This document shows, in pieces, positions 9,146 to 17,166 of a stretch of 20,000 nucleotides of DNA. The first letter of the stretch is position 1. Every line of letters starts with the position of its first letter. The stretch is taken from the IMG/VR virus record IMGVR_UViG_3300027836_000010; one strand, given 5' to 3'. The notes below the pieces were generated by a model. It ran no database searches, had not been told where the DNA came from, and worked only from the letters and a program-made list of their open reading frames with translations. The translations under genes were made by a program, and so were the position numbers. This stretch comes from an uncultured virus (IMG/VR IMGVR_UViG_3300027836_000010) (Duplodnaviria; Heunggongvirae; Uroviricota; Caudoviricetes).

Positions 9146-9445
9146 TTAAATTCCTAACACTGTTCGTAAACTACTATTCTTAGGAATAAAAATTTTTGTT
9201 CCAGCAGTAAAATCAAAAATAGGATCTTGTAGAACGTCTAAATTTCTTTGCATAAAGACCCACCATAGTTGAGTTTCGCCGTACAAGTCAAATGCTAATA
9301 AATCAGGACGGTATTCATACTGACTTTCTATTGTGTAAGCAAAGTCGTCAGGTTCAGCACTTACTGGTCGTATGTTAAAAATTCCTAGATAATTATCTTG
9401 GAGCGGAGTGTTAAACCACGGGCTTGTATTTGTATATGTTGCCAT
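9146..9445 (-). CDS. Baseplate wedge protein, gp53-like (LysM-type fold)
   Basis: RPDLLAFDLYGETQLWWVFMQRN...DPIFDFTAGTKIFIP matches the gp53/LysM pattern RPD..A..YG...LWWV. Confidence 0.8.
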   Translation of the reverse strand: MATYTNTSPWFNTPLQDNYLGIFNIRPVSAEPDDFAYTIESQYEYRPDLLAFDLYGETQLWWVFMQRNLDVLQDPIFDFTAGTKIFIPKNSSLRTVLGI

Positions 9446-10534: not shown

Positions 10535-11392
10535 ATGACAGCAAAAGTTAATTACCTAAACAACAAGGATATGTTGTTGGAAATACATAGAAGTAAGGCT
10601 ACTTATTGTAGCTTTACAGACCCGGAATATCACCAATATGACATTATTCTCCCAAGTGTAGATAAAGTTAACATTCGAACTATCGCCGAGGCCAAGCGTA
10701 ATAAAGCCAAAAGATTGGGCGACCGTGAATATGCTAGGCGCAGGGCATCTGGCGAGAAAGTCAAAATGGCCGACTGCGAGGTAGATTATAAGAAAATTAC
10801 CAAGGAAGAGATAGTTTTTCGAATAATGTCATATGAGCATATTCCTCTTAATAGTACACGGAAGAAAAATCCAAAAAGTCTAGCAGACCACAGAGACAAA
10901 GTAAACTTTCCGCCATTCCAACATTTTAAATTTACCGACGAAGGCGATTTGATTTGTGTTGGTAAGTCGCACTGGAAAGGTGATCTAACAACAGGACACT
11001 TTGACAAAGATGCTGGGCAAATTACACCTACCTTAGCTCGCATGATGATCAAACTATGTGAGCGATATGCTACACGTGGTAACGTTCGCGGTTATACCTA
11101 CAACGATGAGATGAAGGGGCAGGCTATCCTACAACTTACACAAATTGGCTTACAATTTGACGAATCTAAAAGCGATAATCCGTTTGCCTATTTTACCGCG
11201 GCTGTTACTAACAGCTTTGTTCGTGTTATTAACATTGAAAAACGTAATCAAAACATCCGCGATGATATTTTAGAAATGAATGGTATGAATCCGTCATACT
11301 CACGTACAGGCCAAGGCGAACACGAGGCCGCATTAAAACGTCATGCTGAGGACACAACTAATGAAGCAACCAATGACACACCAACTGTTTAA
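10535..11392 (+). CDS. gp55: Late-transcription sigma factor, T4 gp55-like
   Basis: N-terminal NYLNNKDML and C-terminal RGNVRGYTYNDEM...QFDESKSDNPFAYFTAAVTNSFVRVINIEKR match gp55 motifs. The gene order 55-47-46 is typical of T4-like phages. Confidence 0.85.
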   Translation: MTAKVNYLNNKDMLLEIHRSKATYCSFTDPEYHQYDIILPSVDKVNIRTIAEAKRNKAKRLGDREYARRRASGEKVKMADCEVDYKKITKEEIVFRIMSYEHIPLNSTRKKNPKSLADHRDKVNFPPFQHFKFTDEGDLICVGKSHWKGDLTTGHFDKDAGQITPTLARMMIKLCERYATRGNVRGYTYNDEMKGQAILQLTQIGLQFDESKSDNPFAYFTAAVTNSFVRVINIEKRNQNIRDDILEMNGMNPSYSRTGQGEHEAALKRHAEDTTNEATNDTPTV

Positions 11393-12389
11393 AAAAGTAG
11401 CATGTTTTACTGATATTCACTTTGGATTAAAATCCAATAGTTCAACACATAATCAGGACTGCGAAGACTTCGTAGACTGGTATATTGCTAAGGCAAAGGA
11501 GGAAGGCTGTGATACTGGAATATTTATGGGGGACTGGCATCACAATCGCAATAGTCTTAACATCACTACTATGGACTATAGCCTTAGGGCCTTGGAGAAG
11601 CTGGGTCAAGCCTTTGATAACTTTTACTTCTTTCCTGGCAATCATGATTTATATTACAAAGATAAGCGGGATATTCATTCCGTCGAGTTTGGCAAGTATA
11701 TTCCAGGGATTACTGTTGTACACGAGCCTACTACTATTGGGGACGTTACGCTGTGCCCGTGGCTTGTAGGCGACGAATGGAAGACAGTGGGCAAGAAAGG
11801 CGGCAAGTATATCTTTGGTCACTTCGAATTGCCTAACTTCTTTATGAACGCTATGGTACAGATGCCGGATCACGGCGAGCTTAGAGCAGACGATTTTAAA
11901 AATTACGAGCTCGGCTTTAGCGGACACTTCCATAAGCGTCAGCAAAAAGGCAATATGATTTATATTGGCAATGCGTTTCCGCACAACTACGCAGATACAT
12001 GGGATGACGAGCGTGGTATGATGATACTAGAATGGGACGGTAAACCCGAGTATCATAGTTGGCCTGCGCAACCAACCTTTAGAACTGTTAAATTAAGTCA
12101 GCTTATTGATGAAGCGGACTCGTTAATCTTGCCCAAGCAACATTTACGTGTTACACTAGATATAGATATCTCATACGAGGAAGCAAGTTTTATCAAAGAA
12201 AAGTTTATGGCGGATTATAGTATTCGTGAATTAACTTTGATTGCTGAAAAAAAGGAAAACGAAATCAATACAGACATCGATATTCAAGCGTTTGAATCCG
12301 TTGATCAAATTGTATCTAATCAACTAATCAACATTGACAGCGAGCAGTTTAATAAAAACACGCTACTATCGATTTATAATAGCCTATGA
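11361..12389 (+). CDS. gp47: Recombination endonuclease subunit, gp47 / Mre11 / SbcD-like
   Basis: Phosphoesterase motifs DIHFG, GDWHH, GNHD, GHFE, SGHFH. Start placed at ATG 11361 because GAGGA lies at 11348-11352; the track uses 11343 and 11373 is also possible. Confidence 0.93.
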   Translation: MKQPMTHQLFKKVACFTDIHFGLKSNSSTHNQDCEDFVDWYIAKAKEEGCDTGIFMGDWHHNRNSLNITTMDYSLRALEKLGQAFDNFYFFPGNHDLYYKDKRDIHSVEFGKYIPGITVVHEPTTIGDVTLCPWLVGDEWKTVGKKGGKYIFGHFELPNFFMNAMVQMPDHGELRADDFKNYELGFSGHFHKRQQKGNMIYIGNAFPHNYADTWDDERGMMILEWDGKPEYHSWPAQPTFRTVKLSQLIDEADSLILPKQHLRVTLDIDISYEEASFIKEKFMADYSIRELTLIAEKKENEINTDIDIQAFESVDQIVSNQLINIDSEQFNKNTLLSIYNSL

Positions 12390-14167
12390 CAATTAAAATA
12401 AAAGAACTAACCGTAAAGAATTTTATGAGTGTGGGCAACCAGACTCAAGCCGTTGACTTTAGCAAACAATACTTGACGCTAGTACTGGGTGAAAACTTAG
12501 ACATGGGCGGTGACGATAGCGGAAGTCGCAATGGAACCGGTAAAACTACCATTGTTAATGCCTTAAGCTATGCTTTATTCGGTAATGCTCTTACTAATAT
12601 TAAAAAAGATAATCTTATTAATAAGATTAACAATAAAAATATGTTAGTTACCCTTGCGTTTGACAAGGACGGAACAGATTATCGTATAGAGCGTGGCCGA
12701 AAGCCTAATGTATTAAAGTTCTATGTTAATAATCAAGAACAAGAAACAGCAGAAACAGATGACGCACAAGGCGACATGCGTGAAACCCAGAAGGACTTAG
12801 ATGACTTGCTGGGTATGAGTCACGATATGTTTAAACATATTCTTGCTCTTAACACATATACAGAACCGTTTCTTAGTATGCGGGCTAATGACCAGCGGGT
12901 TATTATCGAACAGTTGTTGGGTATTACTATACTCAGCGAAAAAGCAGAAGCACTTAAAGAGCTTATTCGTCAAACTAAAGATGCTATTATTCAAGAAAAC
13001 GCAGACATAGAAGCAACTAAGAAATCTAACGAAAAGATTCAAACTAGTATTGATAGTTTACTAACAAGACAGACTGTTTGGAATACTCAAAGAGATAATG
13101 ATGTTGAAAAGATTGGCCGTGCTATTGTAGAACTAGAAAATGTAGACATTACTGCGGAACTAGAGATACATGCCCAACTTAAAACATATCTTGAACAGAC
13201 TGCTAGACTAAAGAGTCTGAATAAAGAACGGGCGACGCTAGAAAGCGCGACAGCGCAAGCGGAGCGAAGCGTAAAAAAATACGCTAGCGAGCTTGCCGCA
13301 TTAGATGGTAAGAAATGCCATGCTTGTGAACAAGAATTACATGATCATAAACATGAAGAACTTACAACTAAGGCTCAAACTTCGATTGACGAAGCTAGCA
13401 AGTATTACAACAAGGTAACTACTGACTTAAACAAGCTGGTTACTGAAATATCTGCCATAGGTGAACTGTCTGCCCGTCCAGATACTTACTACGACACAGT
13501 TGAGGAAGCTCTTAAACATCAGAACAACTTGAAAACTCTGGAAACTAACTTGGTTATCAAAGCAGGCGAAGTAGATCCTTATCAAGAACAAATTGATGAA
13601 CTGTTAAGTACCGCTATTCAAGACATAACTTGGGATCATATTAATGAACTTAATACTCTCAAAGAGCATCAAGAGTTCTTGTTAAAGTTACTTACAAGTA
13701 AAGACAGCTTTATTCGCAAGAAGATTATTGACCAGAACCTTGCCTACTTGAATAATCGTCTAACTTATTATCTCGACAAAATGGGTTTACCGCATACAGT
13801 TACTTTCTTAAACGACTTGAATGTGGAAATTACGCAACTTGGGCAAGATTTAGACTTTGATAACTTGTCACGTGGTGAACGTAACAGACTTATACTTGGA
13901 TTGTCGTGGGCGTTCCGCGATGTATGGGAAAGTCTATATCAAAACATTAACTTGTTGTTTGTCGATGAGCTTGTTGATAACGGCTTAGATGCTAGCGGTG
14001 TTGAATCAGCATTGGCTGTGCTTAAAAAGATGGCTCGTGAACGTAACAAGAACATATTCTTAATTTCGCACAAGGATGAATTGATTGGGCGTGTTAATAA
14101 TGTACTTAAAGTTATTAAAGAAAATGGATTTACCAGCTACGCAAATGATGTTGAGGTTACAGACTGA
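12386..14167 (+). CDS. gp46: Recombination ATPase subunit, gp46 / Rad50 / SbcC-like
   Basis: Walker A NGTGKTT, coiled coil with central CHAC zinc hook, signature LSRGE, Walker B LLFVDE, D-loop GLD, H-loop ISH; ATGA overlap with gp47. Confidence 0.95.
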   Translation: MTIKIKELTVKNFMSVGNQTQAVDFSKQYLTLVLGENLDMGGDDSGSRNGTGKTTIVNALSYALFGNALTNIKKDNLINKINNKNMLVTLAFDKDGTDYRIERGRKPNVLKFYVNNQEQETAETDDAQGDMRETQKDLDDLLGMSHDMFKHILALNTYTEPFLSMRANDQRVIIEQLLGITILSEKAEALKELIRQTKDAIIQENADIEATKKSNEKIQTSIDSLLTRQTVWNTQRDNDVEKIGRAIVELENVDITAELEIHAQLKTYLEQTARLKSLNKERATLESATAQAERSVKKYASELAALDGKKCHACEQELHDHKHEELTTKAQTSIDEASKYYNKVTTDLNKLVTEISAIGELSARPDTYYDTVEEALKHQNNLKTLETNLVIKAGEVDPYQEQIDELLSTAIQDITWDHINELNTLKEHQEFLLKLLTSKDSFIRKKIIDQNLAYLNNRLTYYLDKMGLPHTVTFLNDLNVEITQLGQDLDFDNLSRGERNRLILGLSWAFRDVWESLYQNINLLFVDELVDNGLDASGVESALAVLKKMARERNKNIFLISHKDELIGRVNNVLKVIKENGFTSYANDVEVTD

Positions 14168-14400: not shown

Positions 14401-15148
14401 TTTGGATGTGGATTGCCTATATGTTAATGGAGATTCGTGGGCTTACGGCAGTGAGCTACGCGACCTTACTAGGTCAGATATCACAAACGACTTTGATCCA
14501 GTACACGACACTTACAGGCAACAGCATAACTGGGCAGGGCTACTGGGTAAACGCTTGGGATTACCTGTTGTTAACAACGGATGGGCAGGTGGAAGTAATC
14601 AACGCATCATGCGCACCACGCTGTCAGATATCACTAACTTAAAACGAGAAGGCCGCAAGCCGTTAGCTGTCATTGCTTGGACACAAATGCAACGTTTCGA
14701 GTTGTACGATGCCAACGCTTGCCGCTGGAGTGAATTTGTTAGCCCAACGGCGGGCAATGTTCCTAAAATAGGTTTAGAAATATGGGAAAAGTACAGCAGT
14801 GACCGCAGTGATGTACACATGTATCTACAACAATTGGTTTACATGGATGCATTTTTAAAAACAAATCAAGTTACTTATTTGGGTACAAACGTATTTAGGC
14901 ACAACTGGAACATACTTGAAGACTATTCCAAGGATCCAGAGTTTGCGCCACACTTGTATCATTTAAGTAAGACTATAAAAATGTCCGAACACTTATTCAA
15001 TGTAAGCATTAGTCAAGTACTAACGCCACATTTAGATGTAATCTACGGCGCTGGCGGACATCCGCTGGAGCGTGGACAAGAAATAATAGCTGAACACTTA
15101 CATAGTAAAATTAAACAGCATTATCAATTCAAAACTACACAGGCATAA
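14390..15148 (+). CDS. SGNH/GDSL-type hydrolase-like protein
   Basis: Block I LYVNGDSWAYG, block II NNGWAGGSN, C-terminal GGHPLERGQEIIAEHL. Confidence 0.7.
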   Translation: MMIDLDVDCLYVNGDSWAYGSELRDLTRSDITNDFDPVHDTYRQQHNWAGLLGKRLGLPVVNNGWAGGSNQRIMRTTLSDITNLKREGRKPLAVIAWTQMQRFELYDANACRWSEFVSPTAGNVPKIGLEIWEKYSSDRSDVHMYLQQLVYMDAFLKTNQVTYLGTNVFRHNWNILEDYSKDPEFAPHLYHLSKTIKMSEHLFNVSISQVLTPHLDVIYGAGGHPLERGQEIIAEHLHSKIKQHYQFKTTQA

Positions 15149-15171
15149 AGGCACCGCATGATACATAGTGC

Positions 15172-15606
15172 ATGGATTGGACTTATGAGAACACCGTTGT
15201 TGAAACACTTCCCGAAGACTGTATAGGCTTCGTGTATCTTATAACTAACTCCATCTCTGGGCGCAAATATATAGGCAAGAAACTTGCAAAATTCAGCAAG
15301 ACCACATATAAAACAGTAAAGCTAAAAAACGGCACAAAGAAAAAGAAGAAAATTCGTAGCAAAATTGACAGTGACTGGCGTGAATACTACGGTAGTAGCC
15401 CAGAACTAAGCAAAGATGTTGCGGAATTAGGCGCAGAAAACTTCACCAGAGAAATCTTATTTTACTGTAAATCCAAATCAGAATGTAGTTACATCGAGGC
15501 TCGTGAGCAGTTTAGTAGGCGTGTATTGGAATCAAAAGACTATTATAACGGTCATATTCAAGTACGTGTCCATGGCTCACATATAATCAAACTTCAAGAA
15601 AACTAG
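15172..15606 (+). CDS. Stand-alone GIY-YIG nuclease-domain protein (Seg-like)
   Basis: GFVYLITNSISGRKYIGKK motif pair; candidate catalytic Glu in YIEAREQF and Asn in YYNG; Lys-rich insert; no C-terminal DNA-binding modules; 144 aa. Confidence 0.8.
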   Translation: MDWTYENTVVETLPEDCIGFVYLITNSISGRKYIGKKLAKFSKTTYKTVKLKNGTKKKKKIRSKIDSDWREYYGSSPELSKDVAELGAENFTREILFYCKSKSECSYIEAREQFSRRVLESKDYYNGHIQVRVHGSHIIKLQEN

Positions 15607-15624
15607 GCTCTAAACCACCAAATT

Positions 15625-16020
15625 AAGCCCGCACTGGCGATAGTATAGTGCCCTGAATCCGTTCTGATGTGTGACGGCAAGGTAGTTCTGCTTGGTGGCA
15701 GAGATGTAAATCACTATCCTTTACAGGACGATGATGGGATATGCCTTCGCAAGAACCCGTTTGATTTACAGGAAAAGGAATTTTTAAGGCTAAATGAGGG
15801 GAAATACGCCCCACGTCTGTAAACATGTTAGTGTATGTTTGCGGGCCGCCGTCATATATAAGACAGCACGATTAGGTACCGGATGACCGCCTAAGCTATT
15901 GTTTATAGACAATTATAGACAATTATAGTGCAAACACTAAGTGAACTGCTCAACTCAGATAATGTTCAAAACAACTTTGCCCGCCAGGGCGAAGTGTGAC
16001 TACACAATCTAGATAATATT
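15625..16020 (+). ncRNA. Candidate large structured non-coding RNA (family not recognised)
   Basis: Lies in the only long intergenic region (15607-16140). Helices checked by hand: 15667-78/15848-59 (12 bp), 15705-13/15762-70 (9 bp), 15815-27/15834-46 (13 bp), 15974-82/15987-95 (9 bp), 15686-92/15697-703, 15872-77/15889-94. G-U pairs indicate the plus strand. Boundaries are approximate. Confidence 0.65.
15903..15928 (+). repeat. 10-bp tandem repeat TTATAGACAA x2.6
   Basis: TTATAGACAA at 15903-15912 and 15913-15922, then TTATAG at 15923-15928. Confidence 0.9.
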
Positions 16021-16023
16021 TAA

Positions 16024-16104
16024 AGTGCTTCGCACTAATTACTTCTAAGTTAAAATAAAGAAAAGTTCGAGCGAAAGCGAAGAACAGATGAACGTAGTTC
16101 ATCT
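16024..16104. other. Cluster of three compact hairpins with GNA/GAAA loops (possible ssDNA signal or origin element)
   Basis: AGTGC-TTC-GCACT (16024-36; GCGAAGC on the minus strand), GTTC-GA-GCGAAAGC-GAA-GAAC (16065-85), AGATGAAC-GTA-GTTCATCT (16086-104). Confidence 0.55.
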
Positions 16105-16112
16105 TGACACAG

Positions 16113-16120
16113 TATAAATA
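16113..16120 (+). promoter_or_regulatory. T4-type late promoter TATAAATA
   Basis: Exact consensus, 20 nt upstream of the ATG at 16141. Confidence 0.8.
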
Positions 16121-16140
16121 TAGAATCACGAGAGACTTAC

Positions 16141-17166
16141 ATGAAAGTATACGATATTATTGTTGAAGCACCTGGTAATGCTGCCCTTTATACAGCTATC
16201 TTAAACAGGATAACCAGTGTTGCTGATATTGACAAAGCATTAGCCGCTCTTGCTAGATTAGTTAAGAGTAGTAGGTTTACTGCTGACGAAATTGCCAACT
16301 CGTGGGTAGAATCTGCCACCAAGACTGGTTTAACTCTAGAAGAAATTGTAATACTGGGCGAGCGTGAATTACGTGCCGCTGGTATTGAAGAAGCATTGAT
16401 TAAGAAAGCCTTGAAAAAAGTTGATGCCATTGAACCTGGTATAGCTGCCAAGGTCACTGCTCGCGTCAGCTCCGAAATGAGTACATCGGCATGGTTGGGG
16501 AAAAGCCTAGAAAAAGTTAGTGGCTATGCTAACTTGCTAGGACTAGGTATACCAATTGCGTTGTGTATTAAGAACATTAGTTTAGAATACGCAGACTATC
16601 AACAAAGTGCAAAAACTCCAGCGGATTACGAAAAATTTAAACACAGTTCTCAATACTGGATTAACCAATGCGTGGGCGAAGTTGCGGTCATTATAACTGG
16701 TAATTGGTTTATTGCCAAAGTTGTTTCTATTCCCGGCGGGTGGGTTGGGTTGACTGGATCAAAAAAACTTCAAGGGTTTTATTTGGGATTAACTCGCGCG
16801 GCTCAAATAGCATTCATGACAGCTATCACAAGTCCAGCAGGCCGCGAATGGGTAGCTAAAATGTTTGTTGCTGACTTGTTGTTTAATGTGCCTGTTGCAG
16901 TTGGCGGAAGAATCGAACAACATCCTGTACAACAAGTTATCAGGGATATGGTAGGCGGTTGGACCACTGGAGCATTAGGATGGATAACTGATCAAGCTCA
17001 AAAAATTACTGACCCAGCAGGCGCCGCTAAGAAAACTGCAGATGCTACTGCTAAAGCCGCCGCAGACAAAGCTAAAGCAGATGCGGCATATCAAGGAGTT
17101 ACTCCGGGTTGGAAGTACGACAAGTACGGAAAACCTGCAGCACCTGTAGGCCCTGATAATTTCTAA
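16141..17166 (+). CDS. Late hypothetical protein, possible internal head / ejection protein with hydrophobic helices
   Basis: 341 aa; preceded by a late promoter; N-terminus MKVYDIIVEA; several Gly/Ala-rich hydrophobic segments; Ala/Lys-rich tail. Confidence 0.6.
   Translation: MKVYDIIVEAPGNAALYTAILNRITSVADIDKALAALARLVKSSRFTADEIANSWVESATKTGLTLEEIVILGERELRAAGIEEALIKKALKKVDAIEPGIAAKVTARVSSEMSTSAWLGKSLEKVSGYANLLGLGIPIALCIKNISLEYADYQQSAKTPADYEKFKHSSQYWINQCVGEVAVIITGNWFIAKVVSIPGGWVGLTGSKKLQGFYLGLTRAAQIAFMTAITSPAGREWVAKMFVADLLFNVPVAVGGRIEQHPVQQVIRDMVGGWTTGALGWITDQAQKITDPAGAAKKTADATAKAAADKAKADAAYQGVTPGWKYDKYGKPAAPVGPDNF

Follow-up and report, generated by a model that had tools for sequence, protein, structure and literature searches.

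What occupies the 534 nt that follow a compact GIY-YIG nuclease gene in a T4-like phage? The question is raised by a 20,000-nt stretch of DNA from an uncultured virus (IMG/VR record IMGVR_UViG_3300027836_000010), called the window below, whose gene content, baseplate proteins included, is that of a piece of a T4-like phage. The gap at 15607-16140 is the window's largest space without long open reading frames (ORFs). A first-pass annotation, which had singled it out as the only large intergenic gap, proposed that it holds a novel, multi-domain, pseudoknotted plus-strand RNA of about 400 nt ending at 16020. The general picture of such an RNA is borne out by covariation, folding energy and G-U asymmetry; its identity and extent are revised. 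The gap very probably holds the full-length form (~484 nt, 15621-16104, plus strand) of the Rfam Polynucleobacter-1 RNA, a modular molecule with several pseudoknots that is carried by mobile elements.

Identity and distribution

Positions 15626-15771 (+) match the Polynucleobacter-1 RNA (RF01718) with 79.9 bits, compared with a gathering score of 37 (E 8e-16), over model positions 1-141 of 141. The entry for this motif in Weinberg et al. 2010 (PMC2864571) comprises 16 sequences, of Burkholderiales and of fresh water or estuary, and classes it as a likely RNA, marked 'cis-reg: y'. That paper alone was returned when full texts were searched for the name, and no function is on record in the literature searched. 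Helices P1, P3, P4 and P5 covary in the present family as they do in the Rfam model, and the habitat agrees, both in the freshwater and estuary samples and in the Burkholderiales. The model, however, stops after the first third of the RNA. Outside it lie the 3' core and the two pseudoknots, two repeated segments named R1 and R2, an alternative 5' domain, the phage context beside GIY-YIG genes and the context beside a recombinase in bacterial chromosomal islands, and none of these features was found in print when the literature was searched by the motif name. No Rfam family is matched by the 3' core or by the alternative 5' domain. The claim of novelty thus fails for the 5' third and stands for the core and the rest.

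Other classes of structured RNA do not account for the gap. ARAGORN finds no tRNA or tmRNA gene in the window. A group I intron was rejected, with no intron family at the gathering score or at E values up to 10, and with flanking genes that vary among loci and are in some on the opposite strand. For the 5' third, the first-pass annotation was mistaken in regarding the RNA as unrecognised. An intrinsic terminator or simple hairpin of a 3' untranslated region (UTR) was also rejected: the last hairpin ends in ...CAUCUU followed by GACA, not by a U run. A terminator scan gives one weak site at 16024-36 and overall no more sites than expected.

Homologues were gathered in several ways. At least 584 relatives of the GIY-YIG protein occur in viral contigs, from which 80 loci at 76-94% identity were kept. 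The whole gap is present in 13 loci at 70-78% DNA identity, and a profile of the whole RNA finds at least its 3' part (about 15846-16138 of the window) in 76 of the 80 protein-seeded loci, the other four ending too early. Twenty other loci were scanned with Rfam. RF01718 lies directly after the GIY-YIG stop in 12 of them, at 83-122 bits, as compared with 80 bits for the window's subgroup, which has a shortened P2. The match is absent from the remaining eight, all of which nonetheless hold part or all of the 3' core. A scan of viral contigs that makes no use of the protein, with a 14-base motif pattern, gave 80 loci with flanks, many of them chance matches. The motif is found by nhmmer in 37 of these, and in 34 of the 37 a GIY-YIG gene lies just upstream on the same strand; the three others are L095, with the full motif, and L122 and L149, with weak partial matches. 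When genome contigs were scanned with the core pattern, seven of nine matches were genuine, all in phage-like contigs within bins of metagenome-assembled genomes. The other two (L200 and L208) lie in GC-rich coding DNA, have no Rfam family and were rejected as chance matches.

Overall fold

The RNA is encoded on the plus strand. The plus strand of 15607-16020 folds at -122 kcal/mol with a z score of -3.69, better than every one of 100 dinucleotide shuffles, while the minus strand has a z score of -1.58, with 5 of 100 shuffles as good. The fold was assessed on alignment A3, which holds 50 distinct sequences of 520 nt, aligned with MAFFT and homologous along the whole length; all column pairs were scanned for stacked covarying pairs, and a model of 92 pairs in 18 helices was then counted. 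In this model 88.1% of cells are paired, compared with 73.0% after shuffling (0 of 500 shuffles as high) and at most 42.7% when partners are slid by 1-3 columns. The covariation score is 0.441, that of shuffled alignments 0.178 and that of slid partners at most 0.095. Both sides change in 69 of the 92 pairs, so the covariation sought in homologues downstream of GIY-YIG genes is present. The model pairs contain 439 G-U cells and 100 A-C cells, an excess that indicates a plus-strand RNA, as had been argued earlier from the four G-U pairs of a single stem. The features of the fold are as follows.

15621-16104 (+): full-length structured RNA of ~484 nt, with 5' domain, 3' core and two terminal hairpins (50 distinct sequences)
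15626-15771 (+): 5' domain, the Rfam Polynucleobacter-1 motif, P1-P5
15631-15651 (+): hairpin P1, 15631-35/15647-51; double changes (on both sides) in 5 of 5 pairs, 98.4% paired
15659-15677 (+): shortened P2, CCGU 15659-62/ACGG 15674-77, with a loop, UGAUGUGUG, special to the window's subgroup
15687-15702 (+): hairpin P3, 15687-91/15698-702; double changes in 5 of 5 pairs
15705-15770 (+): P4, 15705-13/15762-70, closing a junction with UCCU/AGGA (15717-20/15725-28) and P5 (15733-38/15756-61)
15743-15790 (+): pseudoknot 2, P5 loop GCCUU 15743-47 with AAGGC 15786-90
15798-15812 (+): hairpin GGGG/CCCC, 15798-801/15809-12; double changes in 4 of 4 pairs, 86.2% paired
15815-15846 (+): 13-bp stem, 15815-27/15834-46, with four G-U pairs and a loop that forms pseudoknot 1; double changes in 12 of 13 pairs, 86.9% paired
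15828-15940 (+): pseudoknot 1, 15828-33 with 15935-40; double changes in 6 of 6 pairs, 93.9% paired
15851-15931 (+): crossing core helices GUCAU 15851-55/AUGAC 15883-87 and GCAC 15866-69/GUGC 15928-31, around invariant GGUACCGG and ACCGCC
15892-15927 (+): variable insert in the core loop with tandem copies of TATAGACAAT; columns 378-449 of A3 are gapped in most rows, and most members have ~8 nt here
15975-15994 (+): hairpin CUUUGCCC/GGGCGAAG between R1 and R2; conserved, 78.7% paired in the MAFFT register, two pairs with double changes
16024-16036 (+): small hairpin AGUGC-UUC-GCACU; GUGC/GCAC switches to ACGC/GCGU
16065-16085 (+): terminal hairpin GUUC..GC-GAAA-GC..GAAC
16086-16104 (+): last hairpin AGAUGAAC/GUUCAUCU, 16086-93/16097-104; double changes in 8 of 8 pairs, 95.9% paired

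Within the 5' domain, hairpin P3, first noticed as 15686-703, is confirmed by its compensatory changes. The 9-bp helix P4 is likewise real: seven of its nine pairs have double changes, and two pairs in its outer part are mostly unpaired in other members. The UCCU/AGGA helix of the junction holds and is mostly invariant. P5 is 100% paired, with double changes in two of the five pairs of its main run; a sixth pair, counted apart, covaries too. P2 is the distinctive part of the window's subgroup. The seven pairs of the Rfam helix (CUGGAYC...GAUC-CAG) are replaced by the 4-bp CCGU/ACGG with a different loop, and cmscan marks non-standard pairs there. The 4-bp version shows a T-A to C-G switch among 12 close homologues; family-wide P2 is 79.3% paired, because the alignment register is poor there.

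Both pseudoknots proposed earlier are found in the family. Pseudoknot 1, drawn originally between a UUAGUGU loop and ACACUAA, is strongly supported and ranks as the fourth-best helix in the de novo scan. Pseudoknot 2 is supported as a contact of 3-5 bp. By inspection, the loop changes to match in nine of ten sequences with a variant GGC core, and an exact 4-mer complement is present in 22 of 50 sequences' own loops, compared with 88 of 1090 mismatched pairings. The GGGG/CCCC hairpin and the 13-bp stem that had been read from the window alone recur across the homologues with the changes listed. In the core, GUCAU/AUGAC is 99.2% paired, with changes on both sides in three of five pairs, and GCAC/GUGC is 97.5% paired, with such changes in four of four. 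The last hairpin ranks first among the helices of the de novo scan; it places the 3' end of the RNA ~85 nt beyond the end at 16020 given first.

Two elements of the first-pass fold do not survive. The 12-bp long-range helix 15667-78/15848-59, thought to enclose several of the others, is 59.7% paired, compared with 57.9% when shuffled and up to 53.7% when slid. It is possible in the window's subgroup only, where CCGY-UCUGAUGUGUG-RCGG replaces the 7-bp P2, and it competes with the covarying CCGY/RCGG (15659-62/15674-77) and GUCAU/AUGAC (15851-55/15883-87). The stem thought to carry a GCAA loop lies inside a length-variable loop and is not conserved. Long-range pairs given by RNAalifold on 12 close sequences (25-29/402-406 and others) were dropped, as they involve invariant columns only.

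Some variation was observed beside these elements. In the window's subgroup, the normal P2 is replaced by a second copy of the core word GUGUGAC (15667-15677; the other at 15993-16001). Since either copy could pair with GUCAU(A) at 15851-56, alternative conformers are possible. Longer, TTATAG-rich inserts occur at the same spot of the core loop in L001 and L087. The RNA-library contigs of X2 and X3 break at the insert (15900-15930 of the window), and one loose end has a variant that lacks it.

Contigs from the RNA libraries of three studies carry the region, and in two of the studies pieces cover 15282-15809 (X17, X18). One contig, spanning 15656-15809, is given a greater depth than the contig over the GIY-YIG gene; contigs cannot rank expression.

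Shared core and exchangeable 5' domain

At least 18 loci have a different conserved, visibly covarying 5' domain of ~190 nt that is joined to the same 3' core. In these loci the core helix reads GUUGA/UCAAC. The RNA is modular: its 3' core, GUCAU...GGUACCGG...ACCGCC, is conserved, and its 5' domain can be exchanged, being Polynucleobacter-1 in some loci and an unrelated folded domain of ~190 nt in others. The loci with the alternative domain are L020, L022, L029 and 15 more (e.g. L029:2921-3113), ~190 nt past the GIY-YIG stop. In six loci (L004, L007, L008, L024, L031 and L034) the core is found 1.2-1.6 kb downstream of the GIY-YIG gene, which indicates that something has been inserted between them.

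The twin words R1 and R2

The core contains two short segments that end in the same variable word.

15953-15966 (+): R1, ACUC and then the variable 7-mer AGAUAAU (word at 15957-63)
16007-16020 (+): R2, AUCU and then the same 7-mer AGAUAAU (word at 16011-17)

In 71 of 75 distinct sequences the 7-nt words of R1 and R2 are identical. Eleven alleles occur, and AGAUAAU, GCAUAAU, GGAUGAA and AGAUGAG are among the phage words; when R1 of one sequence is compared with R2 of another, identity is found in 975 of 5550 pairings. For each variable R1 column, the highest mutual information is with the column 54 nt further on (0.83, 0.50, 0.24, 0.20, 0.95, 0.75 and 0.78). No complementary third partner is detected by mutual information in the core or in the 5' domain. 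R1 and R2 covary by identity, not by complementarity.

Since direct repeats that change together, 54 bp apart, are typical of protein-binding iterons, R1 and R2 could belong to an element that works as DNA, for example a replication origin; its folded transcript would then be a by-product, or would act as a primer, as transcripts do at T4 origins. The element is also common to phages and host islands. Against this stand the strong, strand-specific G-U excess and the pseudoknots with compensatory changes, and no initiator gene is common to the two contexts. A DNA-level role is the least likely of the explanations considered.

Two other roles for the words were rejected by inspection. As sigma-70 or MotA-type promoters, judged by the usual consensus rules, they have -35-like words at spacings of 10-12 bp and alleles, such as GATGAG, that lack the final T. 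As mimics or partners of tRNA anticodon loops they have no consistent register. The word AGATAAT is present in 15 copies in the window (4.9 expected), mostly within genes, and a perfect 12-nt palindrome, AGATAATTATCT, at 9387-9398 in a gp53-like gene, is made of the R1/R2 word and its complement overlapping. Given the many possible spacings, neither the excess nor the palindrome was judged significant.

Copies in Polynucleobacter chromosomes

The motif is also present in 13 of 121 Polynucleobacter genomes, several of which are single-contig chromosomes. All 11 chromosomal copies fetched (L221:9138-15904 and L223-L232) lie in the same module, in which the RNA is preceded by a divergent DUF6641 gene and followed by genes for a tyrosine recombinase of 188 aa, a 260-aa protein, an AAA ATPase and a 424-aa protein. 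Genomes G112 and G021 each have two diverged copies of the module. The GIY-YIG gene is absent from all 11. The recombinase gene is on the same strand as the RNA, 0.3-1.3 kb downstream, and its product (PF00589) aligns solely to residues 104-274, the catalytic half, of a 292-aa XerC-like protein.

The island RNA retains the 5' domain, ACCGCC, R1 and R2 and the two terminal hairpins. The 3' core is found by nhmmer in 9 of the 11 copies, and R1 and R2 were located in at least seven. The rule of identity extends to the islands, which have other words, again doubled: AGCGAAAG(T), ATCAAAAG, AGAGAAAG, GGAGAAAG and AACAAAAG, one copy having a single mismatch. No protein is common to the phage and island contexts (best E 0.12).

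Genes around the RNA

The genes and signals near the RNA in the window are the following.

10535-11392: gp55-type late sigma factor
11343-14167: gp47/gp46-type nuclease subunits
15172-15606 (+): compact GIY-YIG nuclease gene of SegE type, 144 aa, catalytic domain only, directly upstream of the RNA
16113-16120 (+): TATAAATA, late-promoter-like, read from the sequence, downstream of the RNA and 20 nt upstream of the ATG of the next gene
16141-17166: gene for a 341-aa protein of no known family, the next gene after the RNA

A DUF6071 protein is encoded in the window as well. The GIY-YIG protein matches Pfam PF19835 (SegE_GIY-YIG; E 3e-33) over residues 3-129 and belongs to PHROG 447. In many phage records, and in PHROG 447, this compact family carries the label 'NAD synthetase', which looks like a propagated misnomer. 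A blastn search of 15100-16700 in 50,697 phage records gave no match, and the pattern method found no relatives of the 341-aa protein in viral contigs. We take TATAAATA to be the T4-type late-promoter consensus; ATAAATA is kept before same-strand downstream ORFs in 12 close homologues.

The position of the RNA between two genes could mean that it acts in cis, either as a 3' UTR that controls or stabilizes the GIY-YIG message or as a leader of the downstream gene. It is marked as a probable cis-regulator in the 2010 table (PMC2864571), it abuts the GIY-YIG stop, and in about 30 of 50 loci a same-strand ORF starts 420-505 nt after the start of the RNA. In about 19 of the 50, however, no same-strand ORF starts at that distance, and where there is one in the window, the late-promoter-like TATAAATA stands between the RNA and its ATG. 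The island copies have a different, divergent upstream neighbour, and a UTR hairpin would need far less than 480 nt, several pseudoknots and a pair of variable words. A cis-acting element is very unlikely on this evidence.

Relation to the neighbouring enzymes

Homologues of the GIY-YIG protein at 40-51% identity are present, in single copy, in 526 cultured phage records, mostly of cyanophages. The phage locus is syntenic, with a gp46 homologue at most 2.5 kb upstream in 58 of the 80 loci and a gp26-like hub gene downstream in 31 of the 80, so the adjacency of RNA and GIY-YIG gene may reflect inherited gene order. The family has the look of a core gene, not of a sporadic, selfish one. The evidence for a partnership is mixed. 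Adjacency, strand and the absence of DNA-binding parts in the enzymes speak for it, while cultured homologues without the RNA, synteny and the lack of a protein shared by the two contexts speak against it. The role of nuclease partner, one of those suggested in the first-pass annotation, is possible but weakened, since the homologues in the cultured phages inspected do without the RNA and the islands hold the RNA without the nuclease.

A strong form of partnership would make one RNA scaffold the DNA-reading subunit of enzymes that consist of a catalytic domain only, the 144-aa GIY-YIG nuclease in phages and the 188-aa Xer-like recombinase in islands, with R1 and R2 pairing with the half-sites of an inverted repeat. 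Neither neighbour has a DNA-binding domain, as seen from the extent of the matches (3-129 of 144 aa in the nuclease; XerC-like 104-274 in the recombinase). Both genes share the strand of the RNA, which starts 13 nt after the one and lies 0.3-1.3 kb before the other, and two identical words would suit two half-sites. The nuclease homologues, however, work in hundreds of phages that appear to have no such RNA, more than 1 kb separates the nuclease gene from the core in six loci, and a target was sought without success in three island genomes and near the island ends. Recombinases of the size of FimB and FimE are not known to need an RNA. Such a subunit is improbable, although the reading, if true, would mean that RNA-guided nucleases and recombinases of a new class exist.

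The same gene arrangements could arise if the RNA were a self-standing gene with another job, as a decoy, sponge, ribozyme or regulator, its neighbour enzymes being incidental and R1 and R2 binding two subunits of one protein. The adjacency would then be conserved gene order, or a Seg-type homing nuclease parked beside a conserved RNA gene. The RNA does occur without GIY-YIG, in 11 of 11 island copies and in phage locus L095 with its full motif, the GIY-YIG family is widespread without the RNA, the locus is syntenic, and the two contexts have no protein in common. Protein sites, on the other hand, seldom tolerate 11 or more words while two copies stay identical. Within the phage sample the association is near complete in both directions (informative loci: 34 of 37 in the one, 76 of 76 in the other), and no candidate binding protein is present in both contexts. 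We consider this explanation somewhat unlikely, yet a serious competitor.

Mode of action

The best explanation overall, offered tentatively, is that the RNA is an autonomous RNA of mobile elements, with R1 and R2 as twin recognition segments. With rather more reserve, we suggest that it may work in trans as an adaptor or guide-type RNA. In freshwater T4-like phages the RNA is probably read through from the compact GIY-YIG gene; the spacer (median 13 nt between the GIY-YIG stop and the start of the RNA model, in 82 loci) leaves no room for a promoter. It probably ends at its two hairpins, just before the apparent late promoter of the next gene. The folded core would display two apparently single-stranded copies of one 7-nt word, which may pair with two equal sites of a variable partner, such as the half-sites of an inverted repeat or a repeated DNA or RNA site. 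The RNA might thereby direct or tether an enzyme of its element.

Several points weigh against this explanation. In the three cultured phages inspected (Methylophilales phage Melnitz-3, Prochlorococcus phage P-HM1 and Sinorhizobium phage phiM12), the GIY-YIG gene is followed by neither a long gap nor a match to the RNA profile, and the enzymes beside the RNA may be there through conserved gene order alone. That R1 and R2 are single-stranded is suggested by the absence of a covarying partner in the MAFFT alignments, and their equality would also fit the sites of a dimeric protein or DNA-level iterons. The island word AGCGAAAG forms no inverted repeat, in either arrangement, in genomes G038, G021 and G112, a result that says little because an integrated element would split its target. 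Extra copies of the words near the island ends are at chance level, and none is consistent. The contigs from RNA libraries, which carry the region, are weak evidence of expression, as they show neither strand nor ends nor level.

Large RNAs with many covarying helices and pseudoknots are rare and have repeatedly proved to be ribozymes or guide RNAs. The catalogues of Breaker and Weinberg contain large orphan RNAs of phages and mobile elements, GOLLD, ROOL and HEARO, the last of which was later shown to be the omega-RNA guide of IscB. The present RNA is like these in its length of several hundred nt, its many helices and pseudoknots, its mobile carriers, its discovery by comparative genomics and the small nuclease gene beside it, but has no sequence or Rfam relation to them. 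Unlike omega-RNA, it has no IscB or TnpB neighbour, but a GIY-YIG gene or, in the islands, a PF00589 tyrosine recombinase. No guide segment was identified at its ends; its variable parts are two internal, identical 7-mers.

A second comparison is with T4 segB, a GIY-YIG homing endonuclease gene within a tRNA cluster. In both cases a Seg-type GIY-YIG gene adjoins a gene for a conserved structured RNA in a T4-like phage. The GIY-YIG protein of the window differs from those of the segB type in having no DNA-binding tail and in belonging to the single-copy family of the 526 cultured phage records.

The IS110 bridge RNA, as outlined in Durrant et al. 2024 (PMC11208160), acts with a recombinase of DEDD/Tnp domains and has two loops that differ, the one serving the target and the other the donor. 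Like it, the present RNA is folded, is carried by mobile elements and has two recognition segments; that it reads DNA for a recombinase is a proposal, and the likeness is one of idea only. In contrast to the bridge RNA so described, its segments are identical, its neighbour is a tyrosine-recombinase domain or a GIY-YIG nuclease, and no IS110-type protein is present. A search of the literature for RNA partners of GIY-YIG nucleases or tyrosine recombinases returned nothing relevant among titles and the opening lines of abstracts, or in a preprint searched for the relevant terms.

Implications

An orphan Rfam motif of 141 nt is the exchangeable front domain of an RNA of ~480 nt, whose conserved core was previously undescribed. 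A word that varies by lineage, yet is identical within each RNA, is a clear and testable sign of specific recognition. Polynucleobacter isolates are cultivable, and since some carriers are complete Polynucleobacter chromosomes, the transcript, its partners and its targets are open to direct study. In two kinds of mobile element, the RNA adjoins enzymes that cut or join DNA and that have no DNA-binding parts of their own. If it is a guide, a new enzyme class would be added to RNA-guided DNA manipulation; if it is not, it would still be among the more elaborate phage RNAs without a known function.

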